Source: Massalongia carnosa
Lineage: Eukaryota
Direction of reading: 5' to 3'
DNA length: 64,000 nucleotides
NCBI GenBank assembly: GCA_965645245.1
Contig: OZ287067.1
Coordinates: 496,001 to 560,000 of the forward strand
Position 1 is the stretch's first letter; each line of letters starts with the position of its first letter. Positions 25,085-42,374 of this stretch are shown here, one piece after another. The position numbers and the translations under genes were made by a program. The notes beneath the pieces were generated by a model that saw only the letters and a program-made list of their open reading frames with translations, searched no databases and was not told the DNA's origin.

Positions 25085-26422
25085 CAGTCCCGTGTCAAAA
25101 GTTTCCGACTCTACCCGCGATTTTCGTGATTTCGCGTTTCAACCCCTCCAACCCATCAACTTTGACCTCATCATTTCACCATGCCACGCACTCCGTTGGC
25201 TTCAATTTCTGGTAATAAGCCTCGTAATACCAAATTGAATCAATGTCAAAGAGGTATGATTATTGGAGCCCAGGCGTTGGGGCATGCACCGGCCGAAATT
25301 GCAAAGACATTAAATGTGCCTCGAACCACCGTCATTTACACTCTTCAAAAGCACTCAGAACGCAACAACGAAAAGTCCAAATCGCGATCAGGTCGGCCTG
25401 GAATATTTTCGGATCGCGATAGAAGACGTATCATCAAATTTGCACGAATCAATCCACGCATCACCTATGCGCAGCTGCGTACGGAGGCCGGGGTGCAATG
25501 CAGTCGATCCACTCTCTATCGGACGCTCAAAGACTACGGTATAACAAACTGGCTGGCTAAAAAGCGGCCTTTATTGACGCCCGAGGTGGCAAAGAAGAGA
25601 TTAGAATGGTGCTTGCTTCGGCGTGAGTGGACTTTTGAGCAATGGTCAAAAATTATATGGTCAGACGAGTGTTCGGTGGAAAAGGGGTCAGGAAAATAGC
25701 GTCAATGGATGTTCAGATTTCCGGAGGAAAAATGGAAAAAACTTATGATACAACCGTACGCCAAAGGCAAGGAGGTCAAGGTTATGGTATGGGGGGCTTT
25801 TTGTATGAGAGGAAGGTCAGATCTTTACAAATTGGCCCGCGATTTCGAAGCAAAGAAGATGGGGTACTCCGCGAATTCATATTTGGAATTATTGAACGAT
25901 AATCTGCTTGAAATTTGGGAACCGGGCTTCATTTTCATACAGGATAATGCACCGATTCATACTGCCAAAAAGGTGAAGAAATGGTTCGATGAAAACGGTA
26001 TAACAATCATCGATTGGCCTCCTTATTCTCCTGATTTGAACCCCATCGAGCACGTTTGGTATGTGCTCAAACAGCTCTTTTATCAAGTCAATCCGGACAT
26101 CGATTCGGTGACTGGTAGTGATGCTAAGGTCCGCGAGGTACTTTGGAAAGCGTTGGAAGAAGCATAGGCCTTGATAGATGAGGAAATGTTGAGAAGTTTA
26201 ATAGAGAGCATGGAAAGGAGGATTGAAGCTTGCATCCAATCGAAAGGATGGTATACGAAATATTAAAAATATATTTCTCATCCCAAATTCCTTGCTAGAA
26301 TGTATGTAATCATCGTACCAAGTTTCAAGGCATAAAATAAAAACTTGGTGGTTGATAATTCAAAGCAGTGGGGGGGGTAAAAAGTTGATGGGGAGCTGTC
26401 GGAAACTTTTGACCTAGTACTG
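25085..26422 (+). mobile_element. Tc1/mariner (Tc1/impala-like, DD34E) DNA transposon, full length, inactivated
   Basis: TA duplication at 25083-84 and 26423-24. 25-bp imperfect TIRs: CAGTcccgtGTCAAAAGTTTCCGAC versus CAGTactagGTCAAAAGTTTCCGAC. Length 1338 bp. Confidence 0.95.
25181..26266 (+). pseudogene. Tc1 transposase with two premature stops
   Basis: HTH N-terminus; IIWSDE, FIQDNAPIH and SPDLNPIE with 34 residues between the second D and E; ends GWYTKY*. In-frame TAG at 25697-99 and 26165-67. Confidence 0.93.
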
Positions 26423-30796: not shown

Positions 30797-32840
30797 TTAC
30801 ACGCTGAATGTCTTTAAGGGATCTGATTTCCGCCCGGAAGGTTTCCTTCCTTTGCCCTTCATACGATTATGCGTTCGTGCCTTTCTAATTCTGTTATCGC
30901 TTGCCTTCCACATCGGAACAAAGCCTATGTCTCCTCCCGCTATTCCTTTTGTTCCGTTACTTGGCATCAAGTACAATGGTACATGCTTTAAATGTGCCTG
31001 TACCCTTACAGCCCTGAGCTCGCCGTCGTGCCTTAAATGATGGAGATCTTCGGGATTCTCCTCAAAATGCCTCTTCAACTTTTCGCTTTTCAGCAGCTCC
31101 TGCCTCAGCTCCCTTGTTCTTGCTTCCCGGATGGCGATACGTGTGATCGCCCTCAGCGCATCCATCATACGGTAACGAAAAGCATCCACCTGCTTCATGT
31201 CGAAATGATAGGGTTTAACCTCTTTGCCCTTATCTGTCTGACATTTGATAATCTTCTCTAAGACCTCTTCATCATGTTCTGCCGTTCGAAAAGTTGTTGC
31301 CTTATGCTTATGATAGAGCTCAGGGGGAACTACGAACGAGAGCGCCATCCCAGCCTTTCCGGCTCTAGCCGTTCTTCCAATACGATGCGTGTACGACCTC
31401 GATGATATTGGAAGGTCAAAATTCAGCACGCAAGCCACATTCTTGAAATCAATACCACGAGAAATGCCATATTCTTTGTCTTTCTTCAGGGGTTTTTGCT
31501 TCTTCTGCTGTGGCTCAGTATAATTTTCATCAATCTTTTGCCTTGTAGGCCCGTTGGCGTCTCCTTCGCGCGCTGCTTGAGCCTGCGGAACTGTGTCGAA
31601 AGGTAAGTTCAAAAAATCAACGCGAGACGCATTCTTGTAGCTGGATCTGTTATTGTCTAGTCCTTTCCCTGTTCCTTTCCCTAAAACCTCATGCTCATCT
31701 GTAGCAATTATGATATCGTATACGTTCTTGTTGAACTCTTCCACCACATGAATACGGGAATTGACTGGCAATTCGGAATTCAAAACGCAGCTCCGAATTC
31801 CGAATTGCTCAAGGAAGAGCTTTAGTCGATAACATCGGTCAATATCACCAACAAACAAGATGCATTTGCCTTTAAGGAGCTTCAGCTTGAAAATGACATA
31901 GACCAGTAGAAATTTGTCGTCCTCAGCACATCTAAAGTATACTGGCGTTAATTGGAGCTCCCCGCAGTGCTGAGTTTTCGGACGTACTTTACAACGAATT
32001 GACTTATACCCTCGGCTTCGTCTGCAGCGTCATCCAACTCTAAAACAACCGGGCTCCGACTAAATAGGCTTTTTAAGGTCTCAAGCTCGGTAGCCAAAGT
32101 CGCGCTCATCAGGAACAGCTGTGCTTCTTCAGGTATTGTCCGTGCTAAAATTTGTAGATCTTCTTCATAACCGTATGATAGAACAAGATCAGCCTCGTCA
32201 ATCACAATGTGAGACAGCGCGTCTAATGACATTGCGGAGCTATTCAGGTTGAGAGAGATGCGGGATGGTGTAGCAACGATAATGTCTGGTAATTCCGCTA
32301 ATAGCGAGCGCTGTACAGCGTCACTGATATTCTGTGCGAGGTTGACGAGCCGAATCTGGCTTGTGCAGTATGCGGAGAATATAGCTACGGCTTTTGATAC
32401 TTGTTGTGCGAGTTCTCGGGTGGGAACTAAAATAAGAGCTGAAATGCCTTTGGTGGCTTGATTACTCTGTTATCCTTATTAGTATCTGATGGATGATACT
32501 TAGAAGGGTGGTTTACAGCCTTTCGACGTAGAATGGCCTCAAGGATCGGTAACAGATATGCGGCAGTTTTCCCAGATCCAGTCATCGAACGCGCTGCAAA
32601 TGTTAGAGAACGATAACAGTGGAGCGATGAAGCTATCAAGATACCTAAAATGTCTTTACCCTCTATAGCTAAAGGTATGACCTTTGACTGTACCAAGGTC
32701 GGTGTAGAAAAACCCTCCTTTACAATAGCTTGGAGAAGCCGCGAGTCTAAGCCGAGAGAGCTGAAGGCTGAAGGATTTTGGCGTCCTTGATCAGCGAGTA
32801 CAAGAGTAGGTACATCATCTTGGTTAAGTTTGCGCTTCAT
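30797..32840 (-). CDS. DBP9: ATP-dependent DEAD-box RNA helicase DBP9 (3 introns)
   Basis: MKRKL start; [68 protein letters not shown] and a DPLKTF C-terminus. Confidence 0.96.
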
Positions 32841-33670
32841 ATTGAGTGCGGACAGGGTACTTTGTAGAAAGCCAAAAGATCTAAACTATTTTGGCTGAAG
32901 ATGGGAAAAGTTCGCAGTTTTGGACCGTTCGCTTGCTCGCTCACTTCCCTTGTGGGGTTTGGAGCTCCCAGGGCTGAAGATCCTACGTCTTAATTTTCAC
33001 TTTTCTCTCTTTTCCTCTTCACAACACCACCTCTGTAAACTCTTAGATATCTACCCTCTATTCCTTTGGCACGTTCAATTTTCTAATCTACCTATATACC
33101 ATTTATTGTAGCAGATGGATGTAGTCCTGCAGAATCCATTCTGTTGATGTTTCAGGGTTACGTTATCTACTTGTTTAAAGATTCTCTGGCCTTCGGGGTT
33201 TGAAGCTGAAGGACGGTGGTTTCGTACGGCTGAAATACATATCACAGCTGATGAATGATGAATGATATATAGGTATTTATTTTCTACCCTATGCAAAGTT
33301 GGAAAAAGGCCGTTACTATCTCTCTCAACATCGTCATGAATAACGATGCTAAACATATTAAGCCAAGAAAAAAAGCGAGAGGATCAAATGAGCAGTTCTT
33401 AGAAAGGAAAAAAACGCTATCTCATCCAACTAGACTCTTGACCCAAAGCTTTGCTGTTTCGTGTATATATCAAACGAAAAGACTGTTGGAACGCGTTATA
33501 TTCATAAGGCTGCAAAACATTGGCCCCAGGAATTGGGCCAATGCACTCGGGCTAGTTGTCCATGGATTGTCACATCAAGCAGCTCTCTGGCGGTGCCTGA
33601 TGCATTGCTACTGGTAGCTGGAAACTCGTCCGAGTAACGTATTTCGAACTCATAGGCGTAGCTTGTGAGA

Positions 33671-35418
33671 TTACTTGTCTCTAACGGCTTTCCGGTACGC
33701 AAGAAGTTTTGGCAGAGACTTCTCTACCACATCACCGATATCTTTTACCTTCATATTATGATCGATTGGGTAGACCCTCCCCAGGTTGATTCTCGACTTG
33801 ATGTCCAGCTTGTCGTCTGGGCTGCGGAGATTTATTTGAAGGGGATCCTTGTTCATATTTGTCTCCCCTGCAAGCCTTTCTGGTGGAACCTTCCCACTAT
33901 ATACGATTGTGTGGTTACTCTGATCAACCCCTGGCTTTGTCGTTGCCCTGCCTCCATAGGTGGTAATCGGGCTTGGCAAGTTGTTAGACAAATACTGAGC
34001 AGCAATACAAACCGAAGACTCACCAACAGTAACAAAAGTTATTATCTGACATCTCTTCCACTACAACAAAACGTCTGAACTGATGGTGTGCCACTTCCCC
34101 ATAGGCTACGGTGGTGAAATTTGTACCATTCAATGGGCCAAGACCTGCTGTTTCCCCAGCATTCTCAATGTACAACATCATGAAAACCTTTGCTTCAGGT
34201 CAGTCTAGGAAAGTCTTGCAGTGAAGCACTTTACCTTTCCTCGAATGAAGAACCTGTTTCGCTTCCTCGTGATCTGCTTGAACTCTCCTGTTTTGGGTAA
34301 GGTTTCGGGTAAGTCTTCATCTCTCAATCGAGCTTGATTTTACTTACTTGGATCTAGGAAATCACTAATTGTCGGCGCTGACACTGAGTTTGGAATGGAC
34401 CATTGTCCTGGATAAGATGCAGTTGCCGTAAGTGCTTCCTGCGAGGGTCCGCCTGTTCTGCTTTCGCGGGAAAAACTCGATCCGTTAGCATGCTGTGCTT
34501 GCAATTGTGTTCGATGATCCGTCGCTGTTATCAATCAGATAGGTCCATGTCGCAGGTTAGCGAAGATTGTTACTTGCCTGGAGCACGCCCTGCATTATGA
34601 TACAGTATCGGGTTTCTCCCGTGACTATTTCCAAATACTTCATTCGCCGGTAGCAAATACCCATGCGACACCTGGCCAACAGGATATCTATTGGGCTGAG
34701 TATTGCTGTACGTGTAAGAGCGGGGTGATGTGCGGTTTGCTGTATGCAACGTAATTTATTAGTGGGCGCTGGAAAAGCCGCTTCTACTTACTTCGACTGG
34801 GCTCAATCATTATCGACGATGTTCCTACAGGGTGATACGTTGATCCTCGTTGCGCTTGTCCTTGATATGTTAGCCCCACGAACGAATAGAAAGACTCTAG
34901 CACTTACCTTGCAATCCCAATCTTGAATCTGCCATAGCAGCTTGAGAGTGTGAATGATTTGGTTGCCCACTTCGTTGCAGGTTTCTAGGAAAGGTCGGGT
35001 CCCCGCTTACGCTAAGCTGGTTGAAAATCTGGGTGATTTCAGCCCCCCCTGCGGATTTGGATGGCATGTGAGCATGTGCTCCAAAAACGGTGGTTTGAGT
35101 TCCATATGGATCCACTGGCTGAGGAGGTGGGTCATTGAGCGGTGGAATGAATGGTGTTCGGGGCGTACTGACAAACATTAGACAATGAAGAGGAGCATAT
35201 TAAGAGAGGTGGAGGGAAAGCACTCTGATCCCTTTGCCCATTGATACTCCCATTTCCCTTGAAGCGGTCAGCCTTTACTCTGAAGCATTTTTATTGCATG
35301 AGACGTATTAGGGCAGGATTCAATTACTCGTGGCCGGACGATATTCGGCATGATAAAAGTCTTTACGGTCCACACTCCATATCCAGTACGGAGTCGGTGT
35401 TGGTGTTTTGCTGGCCAT
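33671..35418 (-). CDS. DUF6590-type protein, copy 1 (N-terminal WW-like segment, low-complexity linker, C-terminal DUF6590-type domain); 8 inferred introns
   Basis: Manual splicing gives an open frame: MASKTPTPTPYWIWSVDRKDFYHAEYRPATRKWEYQW...LDPREFK..FFIRGKVFMMLYIENAG..FRRFVVV..FCYCCPITTYGGRATTKPGV..SRINLGRVYPIDHNMKVKDIG. The last introns are 34525-34577 (GC-AG), 34288-34347, 34188-34234 and 33972-34023. Confidence 0.85.
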
Positions 35419-38737: not shown

Positions 38738-40277
38738 CTACCGGAAATCCCTACTCACTTCATTCCGATGATATTCCAGAAGAGTACGCAAATCGAGACC
38801 TATTATTTGTCCCACAAGGCAGACTTTAACATTGTGCTCTACCGGATAGCTTTTCCCTAGGTTAACCCGAGAGATAGGATCGAGTTTTTCAGTTGGGTTG
38901 ACGGGCATAACCCGAATAGATCTCTTATTGAGATATATCTCTTCTGGAAGCCGTTGTGGAGGGCTCTCGCTTGTATGGATTATCGTGTGTTCTTCCTGAC
39001 GCAGCCCCCTCTTTGCGGCCCCCCGGCCGCCGTTGGTTGAGATTGGCCTTTTTGGATTTAGTGTTTGATAGACTTTCGCAAGCACGAGGTTACGAACAAA
39101 CATTTGGAGTATCCTTGACTAGGCTTTGGTTTGACCACAACGAAACGCTGGATCTTTGCGTGAGCATTAGGGCCGCAATCGAATAGACTGCCATCGAGGT
39201 CACTATGCGTAGCATTTGAGCCGCGGGGTGTGACCCAGAATATTTTGAACACCTTTGGCGCTCAGCAAGTTTTCTGGGAATGAGAGATGAGCTTTACCGT
39301 TCCCTCAACGAAGAATGTCCGATGATTCTCGACCACTTGGAAGCCTTGAATATTGTGAGCATGCTCCAAGCTGACTGGACGGGAGGTACTGTACTTACTT
39401 GGATCTAACATCTCCCTTGTGCCCTCGGTACCTCGAATAAGCCTTGTGGAGACGTTGTCGTCCACTGTTTCATTTTCAAGATCTGCGACTCTGGATCTAT
39501 CATATACAGTCCCAGGATTACCTTGCAACAGCCATTAATGCGATTTCTCGATAGGGTATGGTGAGACATACCGTGCACTAATCGTAGCCTGGGATCGTGG
39601 CTGTTGCCAAAATGATATTGTTGAGCTCGTTCTGGGTATGACCCATATGTATTTGGACGATCTTGACCCAAGCTGTATGTTTGAGCGTCATAGCGGTTCT
39701 GCTGAGCATAAGAAAAACTCGGAACTAGTGGATTGTTCGAGCCCGCATTTATTAGTTACGTCGTGTTAGGGATTCCTGGATATCACACCTCCTGAAGGGA
39801 CTTGCGGTTCAGATATTGTGGTATATGATTCCGCTCCTAATGCGATCATGAACAAGTTCCAATTATTCCCCATTTTTTTGGGTTCTTCATTCATTACCTC
39901 CTTGCGTAGCTGGTGTTCGCCCATAGGATGCTTGATGATCCGAGTTCCGGTACGCGTTCCGCGTCTGTTGCTATCCGAAGAGACTCAACAAACTTGCTCG
40001 CATGCTTGCAGGAATACAGACACCTACAGGAGGGACTTGTGGGTCCCACACTCGAGGCTGGCTGTCTAGAATTAGCGGGCTTCGACAGTAGCTCTGGTAC
40101 TCCTAACCTTCCTTGCTGTAGATTTCCACTGGGCTCACCCTCTAATCCCAAACGCCAGGTCAGTATGCATGGATAGAACTTGAGAGGATCACTATTACGG
40201 TATGAGCTCCTCGAGTTCTGCTGGGAAGACATATCGTTCCTCGACCCTCGACGCCGCGTACTTGGTTGGAATGCCAT
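38738..40277 (-). CDS. DUF6590-type protein, copy 2 (multi-intron; 5' exons uncertain)
   Basis: EMLDPSFQVV..FFVEGTVFKIFWVTPRG..AKIQRFVVVKPKPSQGYSKCLPISTNGGRGAAKRGL..EHTIIHT..KLDPISRVNLGKSYPVEHNVKVCLVG. Its three 3' introns fall at the same positions and phases as in copy 1. Confidence 0.82.
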
Positions 40278-40880
40278 GCTACACTGTTCCACTTGCGCTT
40301 TTGTTCAGTTAATACTTTGTTCAAGACAACCTATATACGACCGTGAAGGCTTTACTATCAGGAAATATATGGATGATGCGGCTCTGCATCAAGCAGCTGT
40401 GACAACATGTAGTATGTACCACCGAATAAAATGCTTGGTCACAAATTAAAAGAAGCCTAAATGGCAGCGCTATGCATCGTCACCACTGCTTGGGCTTCCT
40501 TCAGGTTTGCGAAACTTCATCTCCCCTATAATCAACAGGTGCAGCATAGTGCCGTAGACTGCATTTCTCGTTTAAAATTGCCTCCGCTGCTTTAAAACCA
40601 GCCAATCATCTCTCTTGTCAACCAGGCTTGTTTTTTTTTGGTCTCATAGCTGAGCTAACTAACACACAAAGGCTGCTGTCACACATGTTATTTCTCATAC
40701 TCATAATAACACTCTATCGCACTATGCTCTGCATCTACCCATTCTTTACAGCCTTCCTCGATCATAATCGAGCCTCTAGGAAACCTGTTGGAACTTTGAA
40801 GGTTGACACCACGGCGCTATCAGAACTATTTGGTGAGTGTTAGCAAGATCCACCCTATTTAGGATAGGTTTCGAGAAATT

Positions 40881-42374
40881 ATGGGAGGGGACACGTGTCA
40901 TTGGACACCCACATCACATGGAAAATCCACCAGGTATAGATCGATTTCAGAACTACGAACTCCCTCGATCCAACATCCAACTTTCCGAAACTTGAAATCA
41001 GAAGCAGATCTAAATCGCAGTCACGAAGAGGTTCACCTAAAAACCACCGTACCCGACATAATCGCAAAGCCCAGACAGCATAGTTCCATGCAAGATGACA
41101 ACATAAATTTGAATACATCCGAATGTGATCATAAAGCGTTGAAAGAGGTACTGCGGAAGGTATCAAACCTACGCGAGAGATTGTATGGTATGAGACTTCA
41201 GCTGAAAGAAAAGCGTAATGAATTGCGGCAGAAGCGACTTAGCCTTGGAGAGACAGACGCAACGCTCATGAAATATGTACGTCATTTTCAGGAGCCAAGT
41301 AACTTTCGAAAATTTGCATTTGATGAGAGACTCTACACCGAATTAGAGCTGCAACGGGATGTGGTTGGTTCATTACAATATGATTATGACCAGGCTGAGG
41401 ACGAGTATGATATGGCTGAAATTGAGCTGGAGAACGAGGAGGTCAAGCTGAAACTTATGTTTTCCGATTTAGTCGGTAAAGAGTCCGATTATGAAGACCA
41501 TAGCATGAGTGCATCGCTGGGTGGTCATGAGAGACCTGAAGAAATAATGCCTCCGAACGAGGACGACGAAGCTGAGTTGCGTATAGCAGAGTTTCAATCT
41601 CGTGTTGGTGATGCCAGGATTATGCAAGAAAGGCTGCAAGATCTTTTGTCGGAGAAATGGGAGCGACGTGGCAATGTTAAGAAAATGGCAGCATTCAATT
41701 TGAAGCCAGCCATGTCCGATAGAGAATTTTCCGAAGACTTTGACTATCAATATTCCAAGATAGTTACCGAGCTAAAGATTATCGAAGCAGATGTTGAGCA
41801 ACTGAAGACGGGACTAATAGAAGCTGGTTACTGGATGCCCGAAATGAGGCCTAGAAATCGGCCGGAAGAGGGCTTGACCACTGAAAGCCATCCTCAAAAA
41901 TCTTACGACCTTTCTCCTGCTGTAGGCCAAAGACCTGTGAGCGATGGCGTTCTCAATGATCTTCAAAATAATTTTGCCGCTGCACGAGCTCGTATTAGTC
42001 GGTGGCTTCTAATCACATTTGGAAGCTCTCCAGTTGAGCATGCGCGCCATAAGGAGATAATCCGAGCTCTTGGAGACCGATCCATGGATGATAAGGAATG
42101 GGCACGCCTAGTCTTTGAGTATTGGAAGAAAGATGAGTTTGATGACGACTCTTCATGGGACGAGATTTTTCCACATGATCTTTTGGAGCCCACGCCTGAC
42201 AACAAGCTCAACCGCACAAGAAACTCAATATTACTATCCGGAAAATTAGAGGCCACAAATGCTATGAGCGATTTCCAACAACAGTTTCCTCTCTCCAAAA
42301 AAGATCATGCTACTCCTTATGCAAAGGATTTAGAAGCAGACGTGCTATCCGTGTATGAGTCACGGAGCATTTGA
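40881..42374 (+). CDS. Coiled-coil-rich hypothetical protein with a C-terminal helical motif; start uncertain
   Basis: 497-aa ORF with E/K/L heptad-like stretches and a C-terminal RISRWLL...SSPVEHARH...EWARLVFEYW motif. A possible upstream exon has a GTGAGT donor near 40833. Confidence 0.8.
   Translation: MGGDTCHWTPTSHGKSTRYRSISELRTPSIQHPTFRNLKSEADLNRSHEEVHLKTTVPDIIAKPRQHSSMQDDNINLNTSECDHKALKEVLRKVSNLRERLYGMRLQLKEKRNELRQKRLSLGETDATLMKYVRHFQEPSNFRKFAFDERLYTELELQRDVVGSLQYDYDQAEDEYDMAEIELENEEVKLKLMFSDLVGKESDYEDHSMSASLGGHERPEEIMPPNEDDEAELRIAEFQSRVGDARIMQERLQDLLSEKWERRGNVKKMAAFNLKPAMSDREFSEDFDYQYSKIVTELKIIEADVEQLKTGLIEAGYWMPEMRPRNRPEEGLTTESHPQKSYDLSPAVGQRPVSDGVLNDLQNNFAAARARISRWLLITFGSSPVEHARHKEIIRALGDRSMDDKEWARLVFEYWKKDEFDDDSSWDEIFPHDLLEPTPDNKLNRTRNSILLSGKLEATNAMSDFQQQFPLSKKDHATPYAKDLEADVLSVYESRSI

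Follow-up and report, generated by a model that had tools for sequence, protein, structure and literature searches.

A DUF6590 gene of Massalongia carnosa and the MazF/CcdB toxin-type fold predicted for its fungal protein family

Positions 35418–33671, on the minus strand, of a 64,000-nucleotide stretch of the Massalongia carnosa genome (GenBank assembly GCA_965645245.1, contig OZ287067.1, positions 496,001 to 560,000 of the forward strand; referred to below as the window and numbered from its first letter) hold a gene whose product ends in a DUF6590 domain. The question raised by this locus is whether a domain of the bacterial MazF kind is at work in a fungus, a sequence-only reading having proposed that it is a eukaryotic ribonuclease of the MazF/PemK fold with an intact catalytic pair. 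DUF6590 belongs to the CcdB/MazF fold superfamily as a diverged and enlarged eukaryotic branch, in sequence nearest to its MazF/PemK side, and this large family of fungal proteins has probably arisen from the bacterial MazF/CcdB toxins. The answer as regards function is more graded.

The gene, called copy 1 here to distinguish it from a second DUF6590 gene in the window (copy 2), has nine exons and encodes a product of 436 amino acids, which forms a single open frame when spliced from the coordinates of an exon map derived by tblastn. Seven of the introns are of the GT-AG type and one is GC-AG, with lengths of 47–70 nucleotides. It is an ordinary spliced fungal gene, in which a long N-terminal region of about 265 residues with no recognised domain precedes the C-terminal DUF6590 domain, and the family domain profile covers residues 266–436 of the spliced protein at 226 bits. 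Exon 9 matches Pfam DUF6590 (PF20233) with an E-value of 3.5e-30 (105.4 bits) and exon 8 with an E-value of 2.1e-7 (31.5 bits), both passing the gathering cut-off of 27 bits, so that the type of domain had been recognised correctly. The interval 33671–34360 first assigned to the domain does contain it, although its upper end lies slightly upstream of the domain, which begins in exon 7 (34287–34235, minus strand) with EFKQ..FFIRGK. Exon 8 (34187–34024, minus strand) encodes β1, an inserted hairpin, β2 with an RR doublet (codons at 34076–34071, minus strand) and β3 as far as FCYC, the strands being assigned from the secondary structure of the model of the Sticta ortholog described below. The following intron (34023–33972, minus strand; 52 nucleotides, GTGAGT..AG) splits the Cys codon that precedes PITT. 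Exon 9 (33971–33671, minus strand) contains PITT (Thr codons at 33964–33959, minus strand), an insert specific to DUF6590 in which K, H and E are conserved, both the SR and the N.K motif, and the C-terminal helix, and it ends in the stop codon (33673–33671, minus strand). The strings originally quoted for the domain, GKVFMMLYIENAG, HQFRRFVVVEEMSDNNFCYCCPITT, SRINLGRVYPID and KDIGDVVEKSLPKLLAY, are all present in the C-terminal part of copy 1, the second of them across the splice, with the FCYC|CPITT junction spanning the intron.

The closest relatives considered here are hypothetical proteins of Sticta canariensis (P0003), to which the copy 1 product is 49% identical over residues 11–436, and Pseudocyphellaria aurata (P0004), to which it is 51% identical; the window accordingly most likely stems from a lichen-forming ascomycete related to these. 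The last domain exon is 76–78% identical to the Sticta and Pseudocyphellaria orthologs. An AlphaFold2 model of the Sticta domain, calculated from an 83-sequence alignment headed by that domain, has a predicted local distance difference test score (pLDDT) of 92.8 and a predicted template modelling score (pTM) of 0.86, and is all-β with a C-terminal helix. Among the matches listed for this model in a Foldseek search of the PDB, 30 of 31 are MazF-family toxins and the other is the type III toxin CptN, with probabilities of 0.91–1.00. VIA-align, a search of 48,161 representative chains that is independent of Foldseek, returned 11 chains with a Z-score of at least 8, every one of them MazF, Kid, CcdB or the toxin of a toxin–antitoxin complex (Z 8.3–10.0; root-mean-square deviation (rmsd) 2.4–3.5; 91–107 residues aligned in targets of 94–118). 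Next came CptN at Z 6.9, with AbiQ and ToxN at 4.6–4.8 amid unrelated Tudor-like and ribosomal barrels at Z 5.2 or below. Re-alignment of the Foldseek list gave Z of at least 8 for 146 of 996 chains, and E. coli MazF (5ckd_A) superposes on the model with Z 9.8 and an rmsd of 2.9 over 105 of its 109 residues. Since the matches span whole toxin chains and lie far above background, the model can be taken to show the fold of the CcdB/PemK(MazF) superfamily, a small β-barrel followed by a C-terminal helix, here with two additions, a hairpin within the β1–β2 loop and some 40 residues inserted after β3. The proposed MazF/PemK-like fold is thus borne out by the top matches of both searches, to MazF, Kid and CcdB, and it is very probable that DUF6590 shares not only its fold but also its descent with the MazF/CcdB toxins.

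At the level of sequence the link to MazF is faint, though consistent. PemK_toxin (PF02452) matches P0004 with an E-value of 0.013 (16.1 bits, below the 23.1-bit cut-off) and is the most recurrent Pfam family other than DUF6590, appearing in four of the 83 alignment members at E≤1. In the PHROGs collection, phrog_1936, 'MazF-like growth inhibitor', is found in two of the 83 (best E-value 0.11). When DUF6590 clusters are left aside, the three listed as nearest by ESM features include two of PemK/MazF toxins (0.83), a result at the level of a lead. Alignment of the DUF6590 family by hhalign to E. coli MazF, or to a narrow alignment of 59 MazF sequences, gave probabilities of 16–27%, with confident columns only for FCYCCPITT against MCLCVPCTT. 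A narrow HMM (hidden Markov model) of MazF likewise aligns the β3 motif only, and in the same register in several DUF6590 members. The members of the MazF profile are at least 57% identical to E. coli MazF, its narrowness arising because a search with PF02452 gave only MazF and ChpB in E. coli K-12 and none from the control genomes. The best-conserved MazF-like element of DUF6590 is this β3 motif, C.C.P.(T/S)T. The E. coli MazF strings to which the domain had been aligned by eye can all be found in the product of mazF in NC_000913, with the Arg at residue 29 and the Thr at residue 52. As to the colinearity claimed for five blocks, the third (FCYCCPITT against MCLCVPCTT) is the only one aligned confidently by profile methods; the first, second and fifth agree with the order of secondary structure and with the structural matches, but the fourth (SRINLG.. 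against GVALAD..) is not reproduced, a low-confidence hhalign path pairing LRINL with VALAD instead.

One report (PMC10893535) gives the Arg/Thr pair as essential in the MazF proteins of B. subtilis and Symbiobacterium. In enzymes of the MazF type the Arg lies where β2 starts (Arg29 in E. coli, Arg25 in B. subtilis) and the Thr or Ser where β3 ends (Thr52 and Thr48, respectively). In copy 1 the RR and TT doublets lie on the β2/β3 hairpin, where MazF has Arg29 and Thr52. In the sequence register, Thr52 of MazF falls on column 339 of the family (the first T of PITT; columns and residues are given in P0003 numbering throughout), which is variable, and Thr53 on the conserved T340. A domain model that starts just before the RR doublet (pLDDT 94.3) was used to read the Arg register. 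In its β2/β3 hairpin, as read from the strand limits, the partner of the second Arg is the first Thr, and that of the first Arg is the second Thr. To judge by the first aligned pairs, two (5ckf_B and 5ckd_A) of the five entries for E. coli MazF have the first Arg on Arg29, and in B. cereus MazF it likewise lies on the corresponding Arg, whereas the second Arg lies on the catalytic Arg in S. aureus MazF (4mzt_A and 9g1y_B); the remaining MazF rows begin in the loop and give no readable Arg register. To within one residue, the models thus place an Arg and a Thr of DUF6590 where MazF has its catalytic pair, and the β3 motif has the nearly invariant RR doublet opposite it on the hairpin.

A HMMER search of 1.84 billion representatives with the Sticta domain gave 2355 proteins at E≤1e-3, of which 1304 reach E≤1e-10. 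The ten family clusters that were looked up are all unnamed or hypothetical; seven carried a source label, and for six of these it was an ascomycete species. Every named member that was examined comes from an ascomycete fungus. Conservation was assessed in 199 domain stretches from 153 proteins. Of the RR doublet, R319 accounts for 161 and R320 for 156 of the 179 residues in their columns, and T340 for 163 of 189. Elsewhere, Y341 is found in 169 stretches, K348 in 163, H356 in 170, S395 in 169, R396 in 173, N408 in 170, K410 in 167 and G415 in 189. All of these residues are present in copy 1. The two arginines and T340 occur together in 115 of 158 gap-free domains, and together with H356 and R396 in 108 of the 158. 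The only invariant columns of the 83-sequence alignment are H93 and R133, which correspond to H356 and R396 of P0003. The RR doublet and the second Thr of PITT are therefore conserved across the family, but the first Thr is not, its column holding Thr in 52 of 189 cases.

Two or three DUF6590 stretches are found in 39 of the 153 proteins. In many of these tandem proteins one copy keeps the full signature, while the other either has L, Y, M or F in place of R396 or lacks E372 or the first Arg. Such a pattern would fit a single-chain pseudo-dimer. In endoribonucleases of the MazF type the RNA groove is formed by a homodimer. Domain architectures were read from the 42 relatives of at least 454 amino acids. 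P0117 combines DUF6590 with NB-ARC and TPR in an architecture of the NOD-like receptor (NLR) type and is the only NB-ARC case among the 42. Two DUF6590 domains are joined to ankyrin repeats in P0052, a protein kinase to DUF6590 in P0037, and Cdc37_M to DUF6590 in both P0101 and P0125. The close orthologs P0003, P0004 and P0005 carry DUF6590 only, with neither NB-ARC nor NACHT in the same protein.

The explanation that we favour, and consider on balance the probable one, is that DUF6590 derives from MazF, is still a metal-independent endoribonuclease or an RNA binder, and serves as a regulated effector. The domain would have descended from a MazF-like toxin and would either still cleave RNA without metal or at least bind it; that cleavage itself has been retained is close to an even question, tilting slightly towards no. 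It would probably work in dimeric form, with the many tandem-domain relatives forming pseudo-dimers instead, and its RR/T site would likely be supplemented by the conserved Tyr, Lys, His, Glu, Ser-Arg and Asn.Lys residues. Its N-terminal region or a partner protein may hold it inactive until growth arrest, cell death or defence is called for, an effector role suggested by the fusion of relatives to NB-ARC-TPR, ankyrin, kinase and Cdc37 modules.

A number of results weigh against this explanation, beginning with the statistics. None of the sequence methods gave a significant link between DUF6590 and MazF. The PemK_toxin match under the Pfam cut-off occurs in just one of the three close orthologs, being absent from P0003 and P0005, and a scan of the 83 members against NCBIfam gave no MazF-like family. 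Sequence and profile searches of the PDB likewise gave no MazF, returning just an unrelated match (E-value 1.1) and a low-complexity match to TBP (E-value 4.7). The hhalign probability did not exceed 27%; its global mode failed and its greedy mode mis-threaded β2. Foldseek found nothing in the PDB at E≤1e-3, the best E-value being 5.3e-3. That all the sequence statistics are below threshold, and that small barrels are widespread, with Tudor, SH3-like and ribosomal examples matching the model at Z 4–5.2, would suit convergence, in which DUF6590 is an unrelated small barrel of the SH3 or Tudor kind that superposes on MazF by chance. This is very improbable: the matches take in almost the entire MazF chain together with its C-terminal helix (101 of 111 and 105 of 109 residues), a clear gap separates the superfamily at Z 8.3 and above from unrelated barrels at Z 5.2 and below, and three independent weak sequence signals all point to MazF. 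Nor was an antitoxin family found near copy 1 in a Pfam scan of the 19 open reading frames of at least 110 amino acids in the 24–48 kb part of the window. Copy 1, a spliced eukaryotic gene with no adjoining MazE/PemI-type antitoxin gene, is not a type II toxin–antitoxin module.

Also to be set against an RNase is the match to CcdB, a non-enzymatic gyrase poison that fits the model as well as MazF does (Z 9.1, within the 8.3–10.0 of the superfamily matches), so that RNase activity is not implied by the fold alone. The column aligned with Thr52 is variable, with T in 52, S in 34, N in 22 and F in 16 of 189 cases (T or S in 86), and holds Gln in the NLR-type P0117. The models leave the Arg register uncertain by one residue, S. 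aureus MazF pointing to the second Arg and the E. coli and B. cereus proteins to the first. The claim of an intact catalytic pair is thus supported in part: copy 1 has RR and TT on the hairpin, but the residue matching Thr52 varies across the family and either Arg of the doublet may match Arg29. It may be that DUF6590 has kept the MazF/CcdB fold without any enzyme activity and binds RNA, DNA or protein as an adaptor, inhibitor or poison, its conserved polar residues forming a binding surface. The equal match to CcdB and the variable Thr52 column are what this would lead one to expect, and the fusions to ankyrin, TPR and Cdc37_M would fit a role in protein interaction. We nevertheless judge it unlikely, for the only sequence signal is to PemK_toxin and the MazF-like PHROG families and never to CcdB, the motif held in common is the β3 motif of MazF that bears the catalytic Thr, and so nearly invariant a set of residues (Arg, Thr, Tyr, Lys, His, Ser-Arg and Asn.Lys) would be more usual in an active site than on a binding surface.

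The last point against a site of the MazF kind is that the invariant H356 and R396 have no confident equivalents among the residues of MazF, so that the active site of DUF6590, if there is one, may differ. As both lie in or beside segments that are specific to DUF6590 and absent from MazF, the site may be elaborated or rebuilt. In the extreme case the domain would be an enzyme on the MazF scaffold that uses His356, Arg396 and Lys348 instead of the Arg/Thr pair, possibly on a different substrate (tRNA, rRNA, DNA or a nucleotide, for example). That H356 and R396 are the sole invariant columns speaks for this, as do the tandem relatives, in which one copy often loses R396 or E372 yet keeps RR, suggesting that R396 and E372 define the functional copy. 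The RR doublet and T340 are, however, conserved nearly as well and lie at the MazF catalytic positions, and no other nuclease class rises above Z 5.2 among the structural matches; a wholly rebuilt site seems quite unlikely.

A bolder form of the MazF-derived effector is doubtful as a whole. DUF6590 would then be a bacterial toxin that ascomycetes domesticated and multiplied to thousands of genes, the first large set of MazF-derived endoribonucleases in eukaryotes, used as a self-contained and regulated effector of death or defence in three forms. The first would stand alone, with a disordered, inhibitory N-terminus as a built-in antitoxin; the second would be the pseudo-dimers, single chains in which one site is live and the other degenerate; and in the third the domain would be the effector head of NB-ARC-TPR immune receptors.

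The N-terminal region of copy 1 is encoded by exons 1–3 (35418–35328, 35257–35224 and 35167–34908) and 4–6 (34860–34792, 34739–34578 and 34524–34348), all on the minus strand. An aromatic-rich motif, ..YW.W....RKD.YHAE.R..W.Y.W.., is common to copy 1 (in the first two of these exons) and the Sticta ortholog and precedes a poorly conserved region; judged from sequence, it could be a docking or inhibitory peptide. The fifth intron (34577–34525, minus strand) has a donor apparently of the GC-AG type (GCAAGT), and the Sticta and Pseudocyphellaria gene models run in frame across the corresponding place. Either this intron is real in copy 1 or it is retained in the models of the orthologs.

Copy 2 lies 5 kb from copy 1 on the same strand and was found by tblastn (E-value 8.6e-22). 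Its domain exons, from tblastn and Pfam, are at 39342–39298, 39252–39098 and 39047–38738 (minus strand), and the gene probably starts near 40277 on that strand. The last exon matches Pfam DUF6590 with an E-value of 7.7e-26, and the spliced domain reaches 177 bits with the family profile and has 36% identity with that of copy 1. It reads QRFVVV and CLPISTNGG, and so lacks two of the conserved residues, the first Arg of RR being replaced by Gln and the Tyr after Thr by Asn.

Besides copy 2, the Pfam scan of the 19 open reading frames gave a DEAD-box RNA helicase and a transposase remnant. The helicase gene (30800–32885, minus strand; at least three exon-sized open reading frames with DEAD and Helicase_C) adjoins copy 1 on its downstream side. 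The remnant, of the Tc1/mariner type (25169–26167, plus strand), has HTH_Tnp_Tc3_2 and DDE_3 parts in two adjacent open reading frames, with a stop codon between them. An intronless open reading frame of about 497 amino acids with no Pfam domain (40866–42374, plus strand) adjoins copy 2 in divergent orientation; 45 relatives match it at E≤1e-3, and those few with names come from lichen-forming fungi (Pleopsidium, Schaereria and Xylographa).

Both genes of the window are plain members of PF20233, a family with no assigned fold or function in the Pfam library used. No paper was found under the names DUF6590 or PF20233, and a search of the literature for MazF/PemK-like proteins in fungi or eukaryotes, and for MazF together with fungal NLRs, gave nothing relevant. 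Toxins of the MazF/CcdB type are regarded as prokaryotic. Their fold now turns up in a family of at least 2355 sequence clusters that no paper found here names, probably a further case of a toxin from a bacterial conflict system reused in a eukaryote. DUF6590 gains a testable biochemical hypothesis, namely RNA cleavage through the RR/T site with His356 and Arg396, and becomes an added candidate type of effector for the NLR-like immune and cell-death systems of fungi. If active, it could explain phenotypes of growth arrest or incompatibility in fungi and supply new sequence-specific RNases.

Of the known systems with which DUF6590 can be compared, the type III toxins ToxN, AbiQ and CptN are the more distant structural matches (Z 4.6–6.9). 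They are endoribonucleases, as their PDB titles also indicate, and unlike DUF6590 are bacterial or phage-defence proteins inhibited by RNA repeats. CcdB of the F plasmid and of Vibrio fischeri has the same superfamily fold (Z 9.1–9.2, 92–98 residues aligned), although no search gave a sequence signal to it from DUF6590; it acts by binding GyrA and lacks the catalytic Arg/Thr pair. The bacterial type II endoribonuclease toxins MazF, PemK and Kid have the same barrel and C-terminal helix (Z 8.3–10.4), hold the β3 motif C.C.P.TT in common with DUF6590 and have an Arg at the start of β2 across the hairpin from a Thr, an arrangement that the DUF6590 models match to within one residue. Compared with MazF, copy 1 is eukaryotic, contains introns and is monocistronic, with no antitoxin gene beside it. 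The DUF6590 domain has about 150–170 residues against about 110, owing to the β1–β2 hairpin and the insert after β3; it scores under the PemK_toxin cut-off, varies at the equivalent of Thr52 and has an additional invariant His and Arg. Unlike MazF, it often occurs as tandem copies or in fusion with NB-ARC-TPR, ankyrin or kinase modules.

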